DNA of 64,000 bases from Candidatus Multivorans sp. (GCA_965205095.1 OZ242040.1:2855362-2919361); one strand, 5' to 3'; positions 11,591 to 17,630 are shown, numbered from the stretch's first letter. The notes: generated from the sequence alone by a model not told the origin. Made by a program: numbers and translations.

Positions 11591-13048
11591 ATGGCCCCGG
11601 CCGACGCAGCCGACTTTCTCGACGCACTGAAACGGCGCCTCGGCGCCGAGCGCGTCCTCACCGGCGCGGCCCCCATGGCGGCCTACGAGTCGGACGCGCT
11701 GACCGCCTTCCGGGCCCGGCCCCGCGCCGTGGTGCTGGTCGACTCGGCGGAGGAAGTCGTCGACGTCGTGCGCCTTTGCGCAGCGGCCGAAGTGCCGTTC
11801 CTTGCCCGTGGCAGCGGCACGAGCCTGTCCGGCGGTTCGCTGCCGGTCCACGACGGCGTCGTGATCGCGATGAACCGGCTGAACCGGATCCTCGAAGTCG
11901 ACCCGGTGCGGCGGACGGCGGTCGTCGAGCCCGGCGTCGTCAACCTCGCCGTGTCCGACGCAGCGGAGCCCTACGGCCTCTACTACTCGCCCGACCCGTC
12001 GAGCCAGTCCGTCTGCACGATCGGCGGCAACCTGGCCTTCAACTCCGGCGGCGCGCACTGCCTGAAGTACGGCATGACGAGCAACCACGTGCTAGGTCTC
12101 GAAGTCGTACTCCCGGACGGCGAGGTGATCGAGCTCGGCGGAGACAGCCTGGAAGGCGTTGGCCCCGACCTCGTCGGGCTGTTCGTCGGCTCGGAGGGCC
12201 TGTTCGGCATCGCGACGAAGATCACCCTGCGCCTGCTGCCGAAGCCCGAGACGTACTTCACCCTGCTGGCGGCCTACGATTCGCTGGCGGCCGCGGGCGA
12301 GGCGGTGGCTGCCGTCGTTGCTTCGGGCCTGCTGCCCGGGGCGATGGAGATCATGGACAACCTGGCGATCGAGGCGGCCGAGGCGGCGGTCGGCGCCGGC
12401 TATCCGCTGGATGCCGAGGGGCTGCTGATCGTCGAACTGGAGGGCGAGAAGCAGCAGGTGGCCGCCGAGAGCGAGCTGCTGCTGGAAGTCGTCAGGCAAT
12501 CGAAGCCCTATCTCGAGCACATAGCGAGCGACCCGGATGACCGCATGCGGATCTGGAAGGGCCGCAAGAGCGCCTTCTCCGCGGTCGGGAGGCTGAGCCC
12601 GGACTACATCGTCCAGGACGGAGTGGTGCCGCGGTCCCGGCTTGGCGAGGCGCTGACCGAGATCCAGCGATTGGGCGCCAAGCACGGGATCCGCGTGGCG
12701 AACGTCTTCCATGCCGGCGACGGCAACCTGCACCCGCTGATCCTCTTCGACGGCCGGGTCGAGGGCGAACTGGAGCGGGCGGAGGAATTGGCGGGCGAGA
12801 TCCTTCGTCTCTGCATCGACCTCGGCGGCTCGATCACCGGCGAGCACGGCGTGGGGATGGAGAAGCGGCAGTACCTGGGCGAGATGTTCGACGACGCCGA
12901 CCTGGACGCGATGCGCCGGATCCGCATGGCGATCGATCCCGGCGAACTGGCGAACCGGGGCAAGATGTTCCCGGACGCCGAGGCGCCGGCGCTGCTGAGC
13001 CACGGTCCGCACCCCTTGGAAGTGGCCGGAGTCATCTCGCGCGAATGA
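11591..13048 (+). CDS. glcD: glycolate oxidase subunit GlcD (FAD-linked oxidase)
   Basis: 485 aa with FAD_binding_4 and C-terminal FAD-oxidase_C blocks ([19 protein letters not shown]). Confidence 0.85.
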
Positions 13049-13088
13049 GGCGCGGCGGCGCGGTCAACAACGGAGGGGCGGAAGACTC

Positions 13089-14210
13089 GTGACCGGCATC
13101 GTCCATCAGCCGGGTTCGGCGGCCGAGGTTGCCGAGGCCGTACGCGGTGCGGAGTTGGTCGTTCCGCGGTGCGGCGGAACGAAGCCTGCGCTGTCGGCGG
13201 TGGACGGCGCCGAAGTGCTCGACCTGTCGGCTCTCACCGGCATCACCGAGTACCTGCCGAGCGAGTACACGGTGACGGCCCTGGCCGGCACGCCGCTCGC
13301 CGATGTCGAGGCGCGGCTCGCTGCCGAGGGCCAGTACTTGCCGTTCGATCCGTTGCTGGTCGACGCCGGCAGCACGATCGGCGGCGCCGTGGCTGCGGGG
13401 GCCAACGGCCCCGGCCGGCTGCGCTACGGCGGGCTGCGTGACTTCCTGCTCGCGGTGACCTTCGTCGACGGCCGGGGCGAGATCGTCCGCGGCGGCGCCA
13501 AGGTGGTCAAGAACGCCGCCGGCTTCGATCTTCCCAAGCTCATGGTCGGCAGCCTGGGTCGCCTGGGCGTTCTCACGGAGTGCACGTTCAAGGTCTTTCC
13601 GCACCCGGAGAGTTGCGCCACCGTGCGCGTCGCCGGCAAGACGCTGGACGAGGCCCTCGAGGCCGCCGCCCGCGTTGGGTCCGGCGCGGTCGAGCTGGAG
13701 TGTCTGGACCTGGTGCACGGTCTGGCCGGCTGGGACCTGGAGATTCGCATCGGCGGCCGCAGCTTCGCCCTGGACGCTCGGTTGAAGCGGGTCGCCGATC
13801 TTCTCGACACGGACGTCACCACTCTCTCGGGAGATGGCGACGCCACGCACTGGCGCAGCCGCCGCGAGTTCGGCTGGGCTCCGCCGGACGCCTCCGTCCT
13901 CAAGCTCCCCCTGACGCCGGCCACGGCGGCCGTCCTGGAACAGGTCCTGGCCGACCTCGACGCTTCCCACGTAGCCAGGGTCTACAGCGCCGGCATCCAG
14001 CAGGCTTTCGTCGCCTGGCCCGCTGAACGCGCAGCCGACCTGCCATCCCTCGACCGCGCCTTGACTGCGGCGAAACTGACAGCGCTCGCGCTGCGCGCAC
14101 CGGTCGCCGCAGCAAGCCAGCCGATCCTCGGTTACCGCACCGGCGGCGAGCTGCTACGCCGCGTCGAGCAAGCCCTCGACCCGGCCGGCCGCTTCGGCCG
14201 CCTGGGCTGA
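13089..14210 (+). CDS. glcE: glycolate oxidase FAD-binding subunit GlcE
   Basis: 373 aa with an FAD-binding PCMH-type domain, directly downstream of glcD. GTG start. No glcF follows. Confidence 0.7.
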   Translation: MTGIVHQPGSAAEVAEAVRGAELVVPRCGGTKPALSAVDGAEVLDLSALTGITEYLPSEYTVTALAGTPLADVEARLAAEGQYLPFDPLLVDAGSTIGGAVAAGANGPGRLRYGGLRDFLLAVTFVDGRGEIVRGGAKVVKNAAGFDLPKLMVGSLGRLGVLTECTFKVFPHPESCATVRVAGKTLDEALEAAARVGSGAVELECLDLVHGLAGWDLEIRIGGRSFALDARLKRVADLLDTDVTTLSGDGDATHWRSRREFGWAPPDASVLKLPLTPATAAVLEQVLADLDASHVARVYSAGIQQAFVAWPAERAADLPSLDRALTAAKLTALALRAPVAAASQPILGYRTGGELLRRVEQALDPAGRFGRLG

Positions 14211-14249
14211 ACCTTTCAATCTGCCGGCTCCCAACCTTTCAATCTGCCG
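14210..14249. repeat. tandem 17-bp direct repeat AACCTTTCAATCTGCCG x2 with 23-bp period
   Basis: Exact copies at 14210-14226 and 14233-14249, immediately after the glcE stop. Confidence 0.8.
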
Positions 14250-14311
14250 ACGGCCGGCCTGGGACGCCACGGACGCCCGGGTAGAATCGACAGCGCCAGG
14301 GATCGCTTGCG

Positions 14312-14326
14312 ACCTAGACGCTAGGT
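14312..14326. promoter_or_regulatory. perfect inverted repeat ACCTAG-acg-CTAGGT abutting the MNT start codon (putative operator)
   Basis: The palindrome at 14312-14326 ends 1 nt before the ATG at 14327. Confidence 0.4.
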
Positions 14327-14671
14327 ATGCGGACCATGCTCACCCTCGACTCGAGAGAACAGACTTGGCTTGACGGGTACAGGCGGGCCCTGAAGCGCGA
14401 ACACGCCGACGCCGTGCTGCGCCTGGTCGTGTACGGCTCCAAGGCGCGCGGCGACTCGCATGACGAGAGCGACCTCGATCTCCTCCTCATCGTCGATGAC
14501 TCCGCCTCCGACATGAAGAAGGCTCTCCGCCGCATCGGCCACGAATTGGCTGCCCCCCTGATTGTTCTGCCGTCCATCATGGCCTACACCGAAGGAGAGT
14601 GGAACCAGCTCGAGCGCTACCGTTCGGCCTACCATGCCGCCGCTGAGCGCGAAGGCGTCGCGGTACTTTGA
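14327..14671 (+). CDS. minimal nucleotidyltransferase (MNT / Pol-beta superfamily, MntA-like)
   Basis: 114 aa with GSKARGDSHDESDLDLLLIV, the GS-x9-DxD nucleotidyltransferase motif. Confidence 0.6.
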   Translation: MRTMLTLDSREQTWLDGYRRALKREHADAVLRLVVYGSKARGDSHDESDLDLLLIVDDSASDMKKALRRIGHELAAPLIVLPSIMAYTEGEWNQLERYRSAYHAAAEREGVAVL

Positions 14672-14774
14672 ACAGGACAAGGGGCTGCCTCGGCCAGCTG
14701 CTGTGACGGGCGCGTAGCGTCAAGGGAAGTTGACGTTTGAACGTCGCCGGTAAGCTGGCTGCTAGTGTTCCCGC

Positions 14775-14918
14775 ATGAGTCGGGCGCTTGGTAACGATCC
14801 GGCTGCGGCCGCGGACTTGGAGCGTCTGCCGACGCGAGCGGATCTCTGGAAGGTGGGGGTCGGCGTCGTAGCGGCCAACGTAGCGCTCACGGCCGTGATG
14901 ATCCGGCTGTGGGTCTGA
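14775..14918 (+). CDS. small ORF (47 aa) with hydrophobic C-terminal segment
   Basis: ATG at 14775 is the first start after an in-frame stop. The product ends ...VGVGVVAANVALTAVMIRLWV. Its TGA stop is followed by 3 nt and then the GTG of the next ORF. Confidence 0.2.
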   Translation: MSRALGNDPAAAADLERLPTRADLWKVGVGVVAANVALTAVMIRLWV

Positions 14919-14921
14919 TCG

Positions 14922-15251
14922 GTGGTCGTCGGCGCTTCTTTGGAACGGACACTGAAGATGGATGTCAAAGAGGCGGTAAGAAGGGCCAAGCGGTACCTCG
15001 GGGAGATCTTCTCCGGTGAGAAGATCACCCACGTGGGCCTCGAAGAGGTCGTCTTCGACGACGCGGCGAACTGCTGGAAGATCACCTTGGGGTTCTTTCG
15101 CCCATGGGATCTGGATATGGAGCAGACTCTTGTGAATCCTCTGGCCCGGATCGACAGTCACTCGCGGAGGACGTACAAGATCGTCCAGATCGACGACGAC
15201 AGCGGCAAAGCCGTGTCAATCACGAACCGCCGCCCGTCTACCGCTGCTTGA
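14922..15251 (+). CDS. hypothetical PepSY-like alpha+beta protein (putative partner of downstream PIN)
   Basis: The track ORF starts at a GTG at 14922. An alternative ATG lies at 14958. The helix + beta-strand pattern (EKITHVGLEEVVFDDAANCWKITLGF ... RRTYKIVQIDDDSGKAVSITN) resembles the PepSY fold. There is no signal peptide. Confidence 0.4.
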   Translation: MVVGASLERTLKMDVKEAVRRAKRYLGEIFSGEKITHVGLEEVVFDDAANCWKITLGFFRPWDLDMEQTLVNPLARIDSHSRRTYKIVQIDDDSGKAVSITNRRPSTAA

Positions 15252-15254
15252 GTC

Positions 15255-15716
15255 GTGCCGGCAGCAGCGTTCTTCGTCGACGCCAACCTCCTCGTGCTCT
15301 TCGTGGCCGGCATCGTCGATGAGACGCTGATCGGGAAACATCGCCGACTGCGCGAGTTCTCCGTGGCCGACTACGAGAGGCTGCGTGATCTGATCGCGCG
15401 CGTGGAGCGAGTTCTGGTGACGCCGAACACACTCACCGAAGCGTCCAATCTGCTCGGACAGCACCGCGAACCGGAACGCTCGCGCCTCCTGGACGGACTT
15501 CAGTACGTCATCGAGGGGAGCCGGGAGATCGTCGTTGCGAGCGCTGAAGCGGCACAGAGCCCCGTCTTTCGGCGCTTGGGATTAACCGACGCGGCGTTGT
15601 TCGAAGGGGCGACGGCCGAGCGGCCGCTACTGACCGTTGACCTCGACCTGTACCTGGCGGTTTGCTCAAGAGATGCGGCAGCGGTCGAGAACTTCAACTA
15701 CTCCCGCGATCTGTGA
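15255..15716 (+). CDS. PIN-domain nuclease (VapC-like)
   Basis: 153 aa with FFVDANLLV (Asp9), TEASNLL, LTDAAL and TVDLDLY acidic motifs. The GTG start lies 3 nt after the upstream stop. Confidence 0.6.
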   Translation: MPAAAFFVDANLLVLFVAGIVDETLIGKHRRLREFSVADYERLRDLIARVERVLVTPNTLTEASNLLGQHREPERSRLLDGLQYVIEGSREIVVASAEAAQSPVFRRLGLTDAALFEGATAERPLLTVDLDLYLAVCSRDAAAVENFNYSRDL

Positions 15717-15823
15717 TCCAGAGGCTGAACCGTCTCGTCAAGCGCCCGAAGCTCCATCTCGCGGATAGCGGCGTTGGCGTGACTCGGGCTTCGGCCTGCT
15801 GTTTCGCGGCTTGGGGGTGATCT

Positions 15824-16000
15824 CTACGTCTTGGGCGAGGCTGTCGCAAGCAGCAGCGCCTCCCAGCCTTTGGCCAGGTCTTCCTGGATCAAGGCGTTGC
15901 GCTCGCTCGACAGCTTCACCAGGGAGATCGTCTGTTTCCCGAGCGCGAGGAACTGGGCCATGTTGAGCGCCGTCGGGTTCCAGCCATAGGGCCCAGGAAG
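15824..16000 (-). other. short orphan frame (57 codons: LPGPYGWNPTALNMAQFLALGKQTISLVKLSSERNALIQEDLAKGWEALLLATASPKT*), possibly a gene remnant
   Basis: Manual translation. It is bounded upstream by an in-frame TAG. It has no obvious family. Confidence 0.15.
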
Positions 16001-16070
16001 CTAGAGGCGAGCGTTCACTGGGACCCCGCCCGGCTCCTCGGCGAGCGGGTCCAGGTACGGCACCGCCGCC

Positions 16071-17507
16071 TCAGCTCGCCTTCGGCAGAGCCCCCATCAC
16101 GGCCTTGACCTCCAGGAACTCCTCGAAGCCGAAGTCGCCCCATTCGCGGCCGTTGCCGGACTGCTTGTAGCCGCCGAAGGGGGCGCCGAAGTCGGCGGGG
16201 GCGCCGTTGATGTGGACGTTGCCGGCGCGAATGCGCGAAGCGACGCTGCGGGCGTGGTCGAGGTCGCCGGACTGGACGTAGCTCGACAGGCCGTACGGCG
16301 TGTCGTTGGCGATCCGGATCGCTTCCTCCTCGGTCTGGTAGGGGAGGATGGAGAGCACCGGGCCGAAGATCTCCTCCTGGGCGATCGTCATGTCGTTGCT
16401 CACGCCGCCGAAGACGGTGGGGCGGACGTAGTAGCCGCTGTCCATGCCTTCGGGGCGGTCCGTGCCGCCGGTGACGAGTTCGGCGCCCTCTTCGACGCCC
16501 TTGGCGATCAGGGCCTGGATCTTGTCGTACTGGACCTTGCTGACGACCGGGCCGATGGCTACGCCTTCCTGTCCCGGCGGGCCGACGGCGGTCGCTTCGG
16601 CGGCCGCCTTGGCGACCTCGAGCGCACGGGCGTGCGAGGCCGCCGGCACGAGCATCCGCGTGGGCGCGTTGCAGGACTGGCCGCTGTTCAGGAAGCACTG
16701 GCGGGTGCCGGCCTTGACCGCCTTGTCGATGTCCGCGTCCTCGAGGACGATGTTCGGCGACTTGCCGCCGAGTTCCTGGGCGACGCGCTTGATCGAGTCG
16801 GCGGCGGCCTTGGCGACGGCGCGGCCGGCCCGCGTCGAGCCGGTGAAGGACATCATGTCGATGCCCGGGTGACCCGACAGCGCGGCGCCGACCTCGGGGC
16901 CTTCGCCGTTGATCAGGTTGAAGACGCCCGGCGGAACGCCCGCGTCGTGGAGGATCTCGGCGAGCAGGATCGCGTTGAGCGGCGCCACCTCGCTCGGCTT
17001 GAGCACCATCGTGCAGCCCGCGGCGAGCGCCGGCGCGACCTTGCAGGCGATCTGGTTGATCGGCCAGTTCCACGGCGTGATCAGACCGCAGACGCCGACC
17101 GGTTCCTTGACGATGTTCGTCGTGCCGCGGGTCTCGACGAAGTCGTAGTCCTTCAGCACGTTCAGGGCGCCGGCGAAGTGGCCGAGGCCTGAGGGCGCCT
17201 GGGCGGCCTTGGCGAGCCAGGCCGGGGCGCCCATCTCCATCGAGATCGTCTCCGCCATCTCGCCGATCCGGGCCTGGTAACCGGCGACGATCCGGCCCAG
17301 GAGCTCGACCCGCTCTTCCTGACTGGTCCGGGAGAAGGACTCGAAGGCGGCCTGTGCCGCCGCGACGGCCTTGTCGACGTCCGCCGCGCTGCCGAGGCTG
17401 ATCCGGCCGATCGCCTCTTCCGTCGACGGATCGATCACGTCCATCGTCTTTGGGGTCGCCGGGTCGACCCACTCACCGTTGATGTAGAACTGCAGCGCTT
17501 CCTTCAT
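16071..17507 (-). CDS. NAD(P)-dependent aldehyde dehydrogenase
   Basis: ATG at 17505-17507 (MKEALQFYINGEWV...). ALDH signatures include ELGGKSP and a catalytic Cys region. The N-terminal 35 aa of the track ORF were rejected. Confidence 0.85.
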   Translation of the reverse strand: MKEALQFYINGEWVDPATPKTMDVIDPSTEEAIGRISLGSAADVDKAVAAAQAAFESFSRTSQEERVELLGRIVAGYQARIGEMAETISMEMGAPAWLAKAAQAPSGLGHFAGALNVLKDYDFVETRGTTNIVKEPVGVCGLITPWNWPINQIACKVAPALAAGCTMVLKPSEVAPLNAILLAEILHDAGVPPGVFNLINGEGPEVGAALSGHPGIDMMSFTGSTRAGRAVAKAAADSIKRVAQELGGKSPNIVLEDADIDKAVKAGTRQCFLNSGQSCNAPTRMLVPAASHARALEVAKAAAEATAVGPPGQEGVAIGPVVSKVQYDKIQALIAKGVEEGAELVTGGTDRPEGMDSGYYVRPTVFGGVSNDMTIAQEEIFGPVLSILPYQTEEEAIRIANDTPYGLSSYVQSGDLDHARSVASRIRAGNVHINGAPADFGAPFGGYKQSGNGREWGDFGFEEFLEVKAVMGALPKAS

Positions 17508-17630
17508 GGGACTGTCTCCGAGGGGTGTTGTTTGCCGGGACGGGTGAGTGTAGCGGTATGCACGATGGTGCTTACCTCGAACTCTCCTTGAGAAGTCGTA
17601 CTCGCGGCACATCTTGCCGGGTTCAACGTA

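Follow-up and report, generated by a model that had tools for sequence, protein, structure and literature searches.

Genes and composition of the islet

We analysed a 64,000-nucleotide (nt) stretch of DNA from Candidatus (Ca.) Multivorans sp. (GCA_965205095.1, OZ242040.1:2855362-2919361), called the window in the following and numbered from its first letter. It contains an islet of low GC content between a glcE-like gene and an aldehyde dehydrogenase gene (aldh). The plus-strand open reading frames (ORFs) of the islet encode 114, 47, 109 and 153 amino acids (aa), in that order. The first is a minimal nucleotidyltransferase (MNT) gene, and the last two correspond to a pair of genes which we name A and T, T encoding a PIN-domain nuclease and A its small partner. 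A-T is probably a type II toxin-antitoxin-like (TA-like), possibly abortive-infection, module with a non-canonical antitoxin fold. The islet as a whole is a patchwork, of which this two-gene cassette is the sole widely conserved part. Its contents are one live two-gene module, an orphan MNT and debris.

The left flank is the gene of a glcE-like FAD-binding subunit (13089 to 14210, plus strand; Pfam FAD_binding_4). The right flank, aldh (16071 to 17612, minus strand; Pfam Aldedh, E 4.7e-159), is convergent to the plus-strand ORFs of the islet. glcE likewise adjoins the A-T pair in the loci L001, L009, L016, L027, L028 and L033, and aldh is also the right flank in L001, L016, L027, L028 and L033. 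In Thermoanaerobaculia (Ca. Multivoraceae-like) genomes, the stretch from glcE to aldh serves as a variable integration slot. The closest relative, L001/L008, is collinear with the window over 13000-15778 at 90% nt identity. L001 and L008 appear to be one contig of a metagenome-assembled genome (MAG) from two collections, their matches being identical except for a coordinate offset of 2000 nt. The original prediction, made from the sequence of the window, had described the GC content as lower than a background of ~70%, which was borne out by windowed GC and by GC at third codon positions (GC3). The GC content of 14211-16070 is 0.636, the lowest among all 1.86-kb stretches of the window (mean 0.697, standard deviation 0.020), and GC3 is 0.77-0.81 in the islet genes versus 0.87-0.91 in glcD, glcE and aldh. 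A promoter and terminator scan of 14100-16200 gave no matches.

Gene T encodes a PIN nuclease

Gene T (15255 to 15716, plus strand) starts with a GTG 3 nt past the stop codon of A and encodes a 153-aa VapC-like PIN-domain nuclease, the proposed toxin. Its structural model (predicted local distance difference test score, pLDDT, 78) matches many VapC structures. Residues D9, E62, D112 and D129 are invariant at canonical PIN positions, and D131 is found in 90% or more of the sequences; a complete Asp-Glu-Asp-Asp metal-binding site is predicted from the model. The PIN fold and the conserved acidic quartet confirm the earlier assignment of this 153-aa protein as a PIN nuclease. At the sequence level, no model of Pfam (including PIN, PF01850, and the PIN clan), NCBIfam or PADLOC matched T at E ≤ 1. 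PHROGs and PDB sequences gave no match either, the PDB-sequence profiles yielding only chance hits (E > 0.3). The homologues of T form at least 2232 clusters. Nearly all are 150-155 aa long, and no Pfam domain occurs in any of them. The ratio of nonsynonymous to synonymous substitution rates (dN/dS) of T is 0.13 here, which indicates purifying selection. A DUF4143-like fragment at 15662-15820 was rejected as evidence (E 0.2); it overlaps the 3' end of T.

Gene A encodes a cystatin/PepSY-like partner

Gene A (14958 to 15251, plus strand) encodes an acidic 97-aa protein with a predicted cystatin/PepSY-like fold, the proposed antitoxin or inhibitor of T. All homologues begin with MDVKEAV, matching the ATG at 14958. 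This is therefore the true start, and the 109-aa ORF of the original prediction was over-long. The same prediction had three ORFs joined by an identical junction of stop codon, 3 nt and GTG. Both junctions are present (TGA-TCG-GTG at 14916-14924 and TGA-GTC-GTG at 15249-15257), but the first one is no real gene start, and its likeness to the second is therefore a coincidence. A is under purifying selection as well (dN/dS 0.21 here).

In the predicted structure of A (pLDDT 85) an N-terminal helix (residues 3-17) lies on a four-stranded antiparallel sheet (strands 24-34, 39-47, 72-79 and 85-90). An invariant RPW motif precedes an insert (49-70) that is variable and modelled with low confidence. 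R48, R71 and K74 are invariant residues. The N-terminus, MDVKEAVRRAKRYL, is a conserved amphipathic helix without hydrophobic signal, and A has neither a signal peptide nor a membrane anchor. Structurally, A comes closest to cystatin folds, latexin, PepSY domains, the fungalysin propeptide and the colicin M immunity protein. In a Foldseek search of the model against the PDB, cystatin-fold and fungalysin-propeptide entries ranked at the top, none of them significant (best E 0.016). Searches of Pfam, NCBIfam, PADLOC and PHROGs gave no match for A, and PDB-sequence profile searches only chance matches (E > 0.3). The PepSY model PF03413 did not match A of the window at E ≤ 1 and reached E 0.15 with a cyanobacterial homologue (12.8 bits versus a cut-off of 24). 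The earlier description of a PepSY-like alpha+beta protein without signal peptide thus stands as to the cystatin-like alpha+beta model and the missing signal peptide, but not as a significant likeness to PepSY in sequence or structure. Judged by the model, the label holds solely for a generic cystatin-like fold class. That the partner is not of the RHH, AbrB or Phd type agrees with the single alpha+beta domain predicted and with the lack of a Pfam DNA-binding domain.

A profile search found at least 1559 clusters of A homologues at 90% identity; at 50% identity there are 2553 representatives, 969 of them at E ≤ 1e-10. Nearly all members are stand-alone proteins of 90-100 aa. Both the A and the T family are labelled "hypothetical protein" at NCBI, and a look-up of the exact A protein of the window (P0121) gave no record. 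A few tandem doublets occur in the A family as A-A fusions of ~200 aa (P0241, P0270). The T gene that follows an A-A fusion at L095:2029-3100 is interrupted by an in-frame stop at codon 71. At L096:1400-2044 (P0339) the A domain carries an N-terminal extension of ~120 aa and two HTH_3 genes lie just upstream. Some family members could come under DNA-binding regulation in this way.

Most of the proteins near A in fold are protease inhibitors and propeptides. Together with the A-only tandem duplications (P0241, P0270), this would suit a pair in which A is the active partner and T a helper, and A could then inhibit a host or phage protease or a peptidoglycan enzyme. We regard such a role as very unlikely. 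PepSY and FTP domains have extracytoplasmic roles, whereas A carries neither signal peptide nor membrane anchor. No peptidase gene recurs among the neighbours, A always lies beside T and is translationally coupled to it, and the active site of T is intact and invariant.

Pairing, distribution and evolution of A and T

The pairing was counted in 87 loci retrieved through T alone. A lies directly upstream of T in all 87, which come from ~10 phyla, and the spacing between the A stop and the T start is mostly 4 nt, or the two codons overlap as ATGA. The pair was found in Acidobacteriota (Thermoanaerobaculia/Ca. Multivorans, Vicinamibacterales, Bryobacterales), Chloroflexota/Dehalococcoidia, Latescibacterota, Nitrospirota, Nitrospinota and Gemmatimonadota, and further in Gamma- and Alphaproteobacteria and Spirochaetia. 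A-T pairs are ~60% identical between phyla and stand in unrelated gene contexts, which indicates horizontal transfer; from these comparisons we regard A-T as a horizontally mobile module. Its spread is patchy, with matches in 436 of 185,579 species representatives. The source MAG names of many A-T loci look marine or sponge-associated, and Palauibacterales have been reported from marine samples including sponges (PMC10469786).

The identity matrices of A and T correlate (r = 0.69, Mantel p = 0.001). The mean pairwise identity is 48% for A versus 60% for T, so A diverges faster. A partner that evolves faster than the nuclease is usual for an antitoxin and its toxin. In many loci a -10-like box (TAnnAT; clear, for instance, in L022 and L035) and a GGAGG Shine-Dalgarno sequence are found just upstream of A, while inspection by eye across the loci showed no evident shared palindromic operator at this position.

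The neighbouring genes were classified with Pfam, and defence enrichment around the pair is thus roughly estimated. The 141 nearest neighbours belong to 89 Pfam families, the commonest of which occurs 7 times. A minority is of the restriction, TA or defence type: Mrr_cat (4), N6_N4_Mtase (3), NA-iREase1 (3), Uma2 (2), ApeA (2) and PIN (2). No recurrent third gene was found beside A-T, and an apparent neighbour cluster of 12 loci was rejected, its members being out-of-frame shadow ORFs over T. In about 8 Nitrospirales loci, including L040:4628-8074 (minus strand), a Type ISP restriction-modification gene (Type_ISP_C, N6_Mtase, Eco57I) follows directly downstream of A-T. In a Dehalococcoidia locus (L051:2058-5008) two A-T copies stand in tandem with a third, partial A.

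More distant relatives are found on cyanobacterial plasmids. There, T-like genes with 31-34% identity are annotated as "PIN domain-containing protein" and are preceded by an overlapping gene for a "hypothetical protein" of 98-100 aa, which hhalign calls A-like with a probability of 97.8-98.6%. L096 contains a further distant A-T pair. On two of the plasmids (L088:1-5447 and L089:1-5432, from NZ_CP046156.1 and NC_019742.1) A-T lies between DUF499 plus DUF7680 genes and a DUF1156 gene. The DUF499/DUF1156 arrangement is a BREX-related "type-1 BR" context, and PIN endoribonucleases in BREX-related operons have been described as backup effectors (PMC12839542). The Leptolyngbya locus also has, beside A-T, a DUF5615 PIN-like/DUF433 pair and a macro-domain gene.

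T pseudogenes next to an intact A occur in L016, L036 and L095, and T was never seen without A. Among the 87 loci selected by T, there are 3 pseudogenes of T versus 1 of A; the T pseudogene of L095, reached via an A-family match, is additional. The same site between glcE and aldh holds divergent alleles. T is 61-62% identical in some of them and 78-79% in others, while glcE is uniformly ~78-80% identical, which suggests allele replacement.

Proposed function of the A-T pair

We propose that A would be translated first and in excess, T following by translational coupling, and that T would be a Mg2+/Mn2+-dependent PIN endoribonuclease. A would keep T inactive through direct protein-protein binding. 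If A were lost or displaced, T would be released, would cut RNA, and growth would stop. As A carries no DNA-binding domain, autoregulation of the operon may differ from that by VapB or be absent. The RNase activity and toxicity of T, its neutralisation by A and any defence role are what we infer from the comparisons above. A function as TA module is supported by gene order and coupling, strict pairing, co-evolution, the faster evolution of A, mobility, low GC, the defence neighbourhood, the tandem copies in L051, the T pseudogenes and the apparent allele replacement. More tentatively, and with slightly less than even confidence, we suggest that the A family could be an unrecognised antitoxin or immunity class, namely a globular cystatin/PepSY-like inhibitor which lacks a DNA-binding domain and would occlude the active site of a divergent VapC-like PIN RNase. 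A-T would then be a mobile TA or abortive-infection module in at least ten phyla, seemingly commonest in MAGs from marine and sponge-associated sources, and sometimes a BREX-related backup effector.

Several observations weigh against a TA module. The mean column identity of T is 73%, with many invariant non-catalytic positions, which is unusually high for a toxin. No DNA-binding domain, the part that defines VapB-type antitoxins, matches A in Pfam or is recognisable in its fold. Both proteins are acidic (median isoelectric points of ~5.0 for A and 5.2 for T), so that there is no charge complementarity. The neighbours of A-T are mostly housekeeping genes, the pair stays at one chromosomal site throughout a whole clade, and no homologue of T was found in a phage collection. 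The pseudogene asymmetry, T decayed and A intact, is weak, and the inhibition of T by A is deduced from synteny, co-evolution and fold. The high conservation of T and the stable site would also fit a domesticated, non-toxic function.

The principal rival explanation is a non-toxic two-subunit enzyme of RNA processing or quality control with A as the specificity, regulatory or stabilising subunit. Besides the conserved sequence of T, the glcE-aldh position kept across Ca. Multivorans genomes, the acidic proteins, the missing DNA-binding domain and the housekeeping neighbours, it is favoured by the dN/dS of the pair, which is as low as that of the housekeeping flank. Such an enzyme is difficult to reconcile with the presence of the pair in only 436 of the 185,579 species representatives, with horizontal transfer between phyla into unrelated contexts and with divergent T alleles at one site beside a uniform glcE. 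Plasmid copies inside defence operons, the tandem duplication in L051, the T pseudogenes and the low GC content also speak against it. We rate the non-toxic enzyme as unlikely and prefer the TA-like module.

The MNT gene

The MNT gene (14336 to 14671, or from 14327; plus strand) was identified with Pfam and PADLOC. It encodes 111 aa from the ATG at 14336 or 114 aa from the ATG at 14327; the former is probably the start, as in L001 and L090. The protein matches Pfam NTP_transf_2 (PF01909, E 1.9e-7) and PF18765 (Polbeta, E 4.6e-6), and its closest PADLOC model is PDC-S09 (E 9.5e-13). The NCBIfam MntA model scores 26 bits with a cut-off of 60. The nearest MNT outside the lineage, in L090, has 79% aa identity, and its end overlaps a HEPN gene (PF05168, E 2.7e-15) downstream. 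Homology of L090 to the window breaks off 5 nt past the MNT stop codon. No ORF of fitting size for a HEPN protein adjoins the MNT gene of the window, tblastn with the L090 HEPN found nothing better than E 1.5 in the 64 kb, and six-frame translation of 14640-14960 gave no obvious HEPN remnant. An MNT without adjacent HEPN, as had been noticed from the sequence, is thus what the locus contains. With a dN/dS of 0.35 versus L001, some constraint on the gene remains. From these sequence data we take the MNT to be a true orphan, left over as the antitoxin half of a HEPN-MNT pair, and not a system.

MNT and A-T occur together only in the window and L001/L008, that is in one lineage. Five other Ca. 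Multivorans loci (L009, L016, L027, L028 and L033) have glcE-A-T without MNT, with aldh next in all but L009. In L009 and L016, nt homology to the window restarts 4-12 nt before the start of A (at 14954 and 14946, respectively). The relatives without MNT and this restart near A mark 14211-14945 as a lineage-specific insertion.

The distribution also bears on the composite proposed in the original prediction, a single defence or TA system of MNT, 47-aa ORF, PepSY-like protein and PIN nuclease. The four lie on one strand in one low-GC block, which is collinear and 90% identical in L001, and this speaks for such a system. Of the proposed synteny, however, only A-T is conserved; MNT is limited to the one lineage and missing from the five relatives, and its closest outside homologue pairs with HEPN. 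The 47-aa ORF evolves without evident constraint and has no homologues (see below), and the real start of A lies 36 nt downstream of the supposedly coupled GTG. We give next to no credence to the composite.

Repeats, palindromes and the MNT-A spacer

Two tandem 23-nt units (14210 to 14255, plus strand) begin on the last base of the glcE stop codon. Their exact 17-nt cores, AACCTTTCAATCTGCCG, occur at 14210-14226 and 14233-14249 with a period of 23 nt, just as described from the sequence, and no other copy is present in the window. In 100 shuffles, zero repeats matched this tandem pair. The repeat is missing from the otherwise collinear L001 and is therefore a recent, genome-specific local duplication.

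A -10-like box, TAGAAT (14282 to 14287, plus strand), lies upstream of MNT and may act in a promoter. Both L001 and the unrelated contig L090 have the GGTAGAATCG box ahead of their MNT homologue. Between this box and the MNT start, the palindrome ACCTAG-acg-CTAGGT (14312 to 14326, plus strand) abuts the ATG at 14327, where the original prediction had placed it. L001 has the palindrome with only the spacer altered, and L090 lacks it; it may serve as an operator or form a hairpin in the 5' untranslated region.

The MNT-A spacer (14672 to 14957, plus strand) came in with MNT and holds the 47-aa ORF and a second perfect palindrome, GACGTT-tg-AACGTC (14732-14745), which overlaps a TTGACG motif. Around it (~14660-14760) there are six differences from L001, four of them within one hexamer. 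Rfam and tRNA scans gave no matches, so the spacer is not a known RNA. Compared with L001, the 47-aa ORF (14775-14918, plus strand) shows 12 aa changes for 17 nt changes (dN/dS 0.89), and it has no homologue in the other loci. It was judged to be a chance frame that evolves neutrally and was treated as non-coding. The ORF exists as predicted, but it is not part of a triplet with A and T.

The Bunzi relic and the slot between T and aldh

At the distal edge of the islet an open frame on the minus strand (15824-15994) had been described as an orphan. The frame is present, but it is no orphan, as it contains a 3'-terminal relic of bnzB (15851 to 15992, minus strand), a gene of the Bunzi anti-phage defence system. 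It shares 84% nt and 87% protein identity with the C-terminal end of a gene in L016 that encodes 939 aa. This gene (L016:4430-7249, minus strand) is a single BnzA-BnzB fusion ORF (PADLOC BnzA E 1.9e-88, BnzB E 1.1e-71), and in L028 (4504-7225, minus strand) separate bnzA and bnzB genes are found at the same place; the PADLOC E-values for the two loci are 1e-71 to 1e-88. Of bnzB, 142 nt from the 3' end are left in the window, and this relic itself gave no match to the BnzB model. From this comparison, it is the stump of a deleted Bunzi system with no functional role here. The Bunzi genes in L016 and L028 agree with the view that the site is a defence or TA slot in relatives.

In L001 (6525-11311) 4.8 kb that are missing from the window lie between T and aldh and contain other unannotated genes. 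Among them are a 73-aa and a 737-aa gene without Pfam or PADLOC match, and the C-terminus of one ORF matches PADLOC PDC-S01 (E 4.7e-8). Depending on the genome, the stretch from T to aldh thus holds Bunzi genes, a relic or unrelated genes and is a variable slot.

Significance

PIN/VapC proteins are the largest group of type II toxins, and to our knowledge their known antitoxins all join a DNA-binding domain to a flexible toxin-binding tail. If the proposal is true, a compact cystatin/PepSY-like partner adds a new mode of neutralisation for PIN toxins, and two big families of "hypothetical proteins" outside all domain databases gain a function. From sequence comparison, what would be new is a module of a PIN toxin and a partner of new fold, from a large unannotated family across many phyla. 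A-T may serve as a marker of defence or TA slots in MAGs of little-studied lineages such as Thermoanaerobaculia, Dehalococcoidia, Latescibacterota and Nitrospirota. The ~60% identity between phyla suggests that genes are actively exchanged within a common habitat. The value of the finding rests on the broad uncharacterised A-T family more than on this islet; for the window itself, the result is corrective.

Comparison with known systems

The MNT of the window resembles HEPN-MNT systems (MntA/HepT, type VII) in its GS...DxD signature and its NTP_transf_2 domain, and its L090 homologue has the overlapping HEPN gene. It differs from them in that the window has no HEPN toxin gene and the MntA model stays under its cut-off (26 versus 60 bits). 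With Bunzi (BnzA/BnzB) the islet shares the site, as relatives carry both genes between T and aldh and the window keeps 142 nt of bnzB; an intact bnzA or bnzB is absent.

Distant A-T homologues between DUF499/DUF7680 and DUF1156 on cyanobacterial plasmids resemble the auxiliary PIN endoribonucleases of BREX-related operons (PMC12839542), whereas A-T of the window lies outside any such operon. That publication does not describe a small upstream partner and mentions neither PepSY nor cystatin. In the searchable literature no PIN nuclease paired with a cystatin/PepSY-like partner or antitoxin was found. A resembles PepSY/FTP propeptide and cystatin-like inhibitors (PF03413 and structural relatives) in fold only; it does not match PF03413, is cytoplasmic and is partnered with a nuclease instead of a peptidase.

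From VapBC, A-T departs in two respects, sequence-family match and DNA-binding antitoxin architecture. T matches neither PF01850 nor a PIN-clan model at E ≤ 1, and A is a globular cystatin/PepSY-like alpha+beta protein in place of an AbrB, RHH, Phd or helix-turn-helix (HTH) DNA-binding domain with a disordered toxin-binding tail. In the other points compared, A-T is like VapBC. The PIN nuclease is small and stands alone, with four conserved acidic residues and VapC structural matches, the partner gene directly precedes it (87 of 87 loci) with translational coupling, the partner evolves faster than the nuclease, and the module is mobile and patchy.

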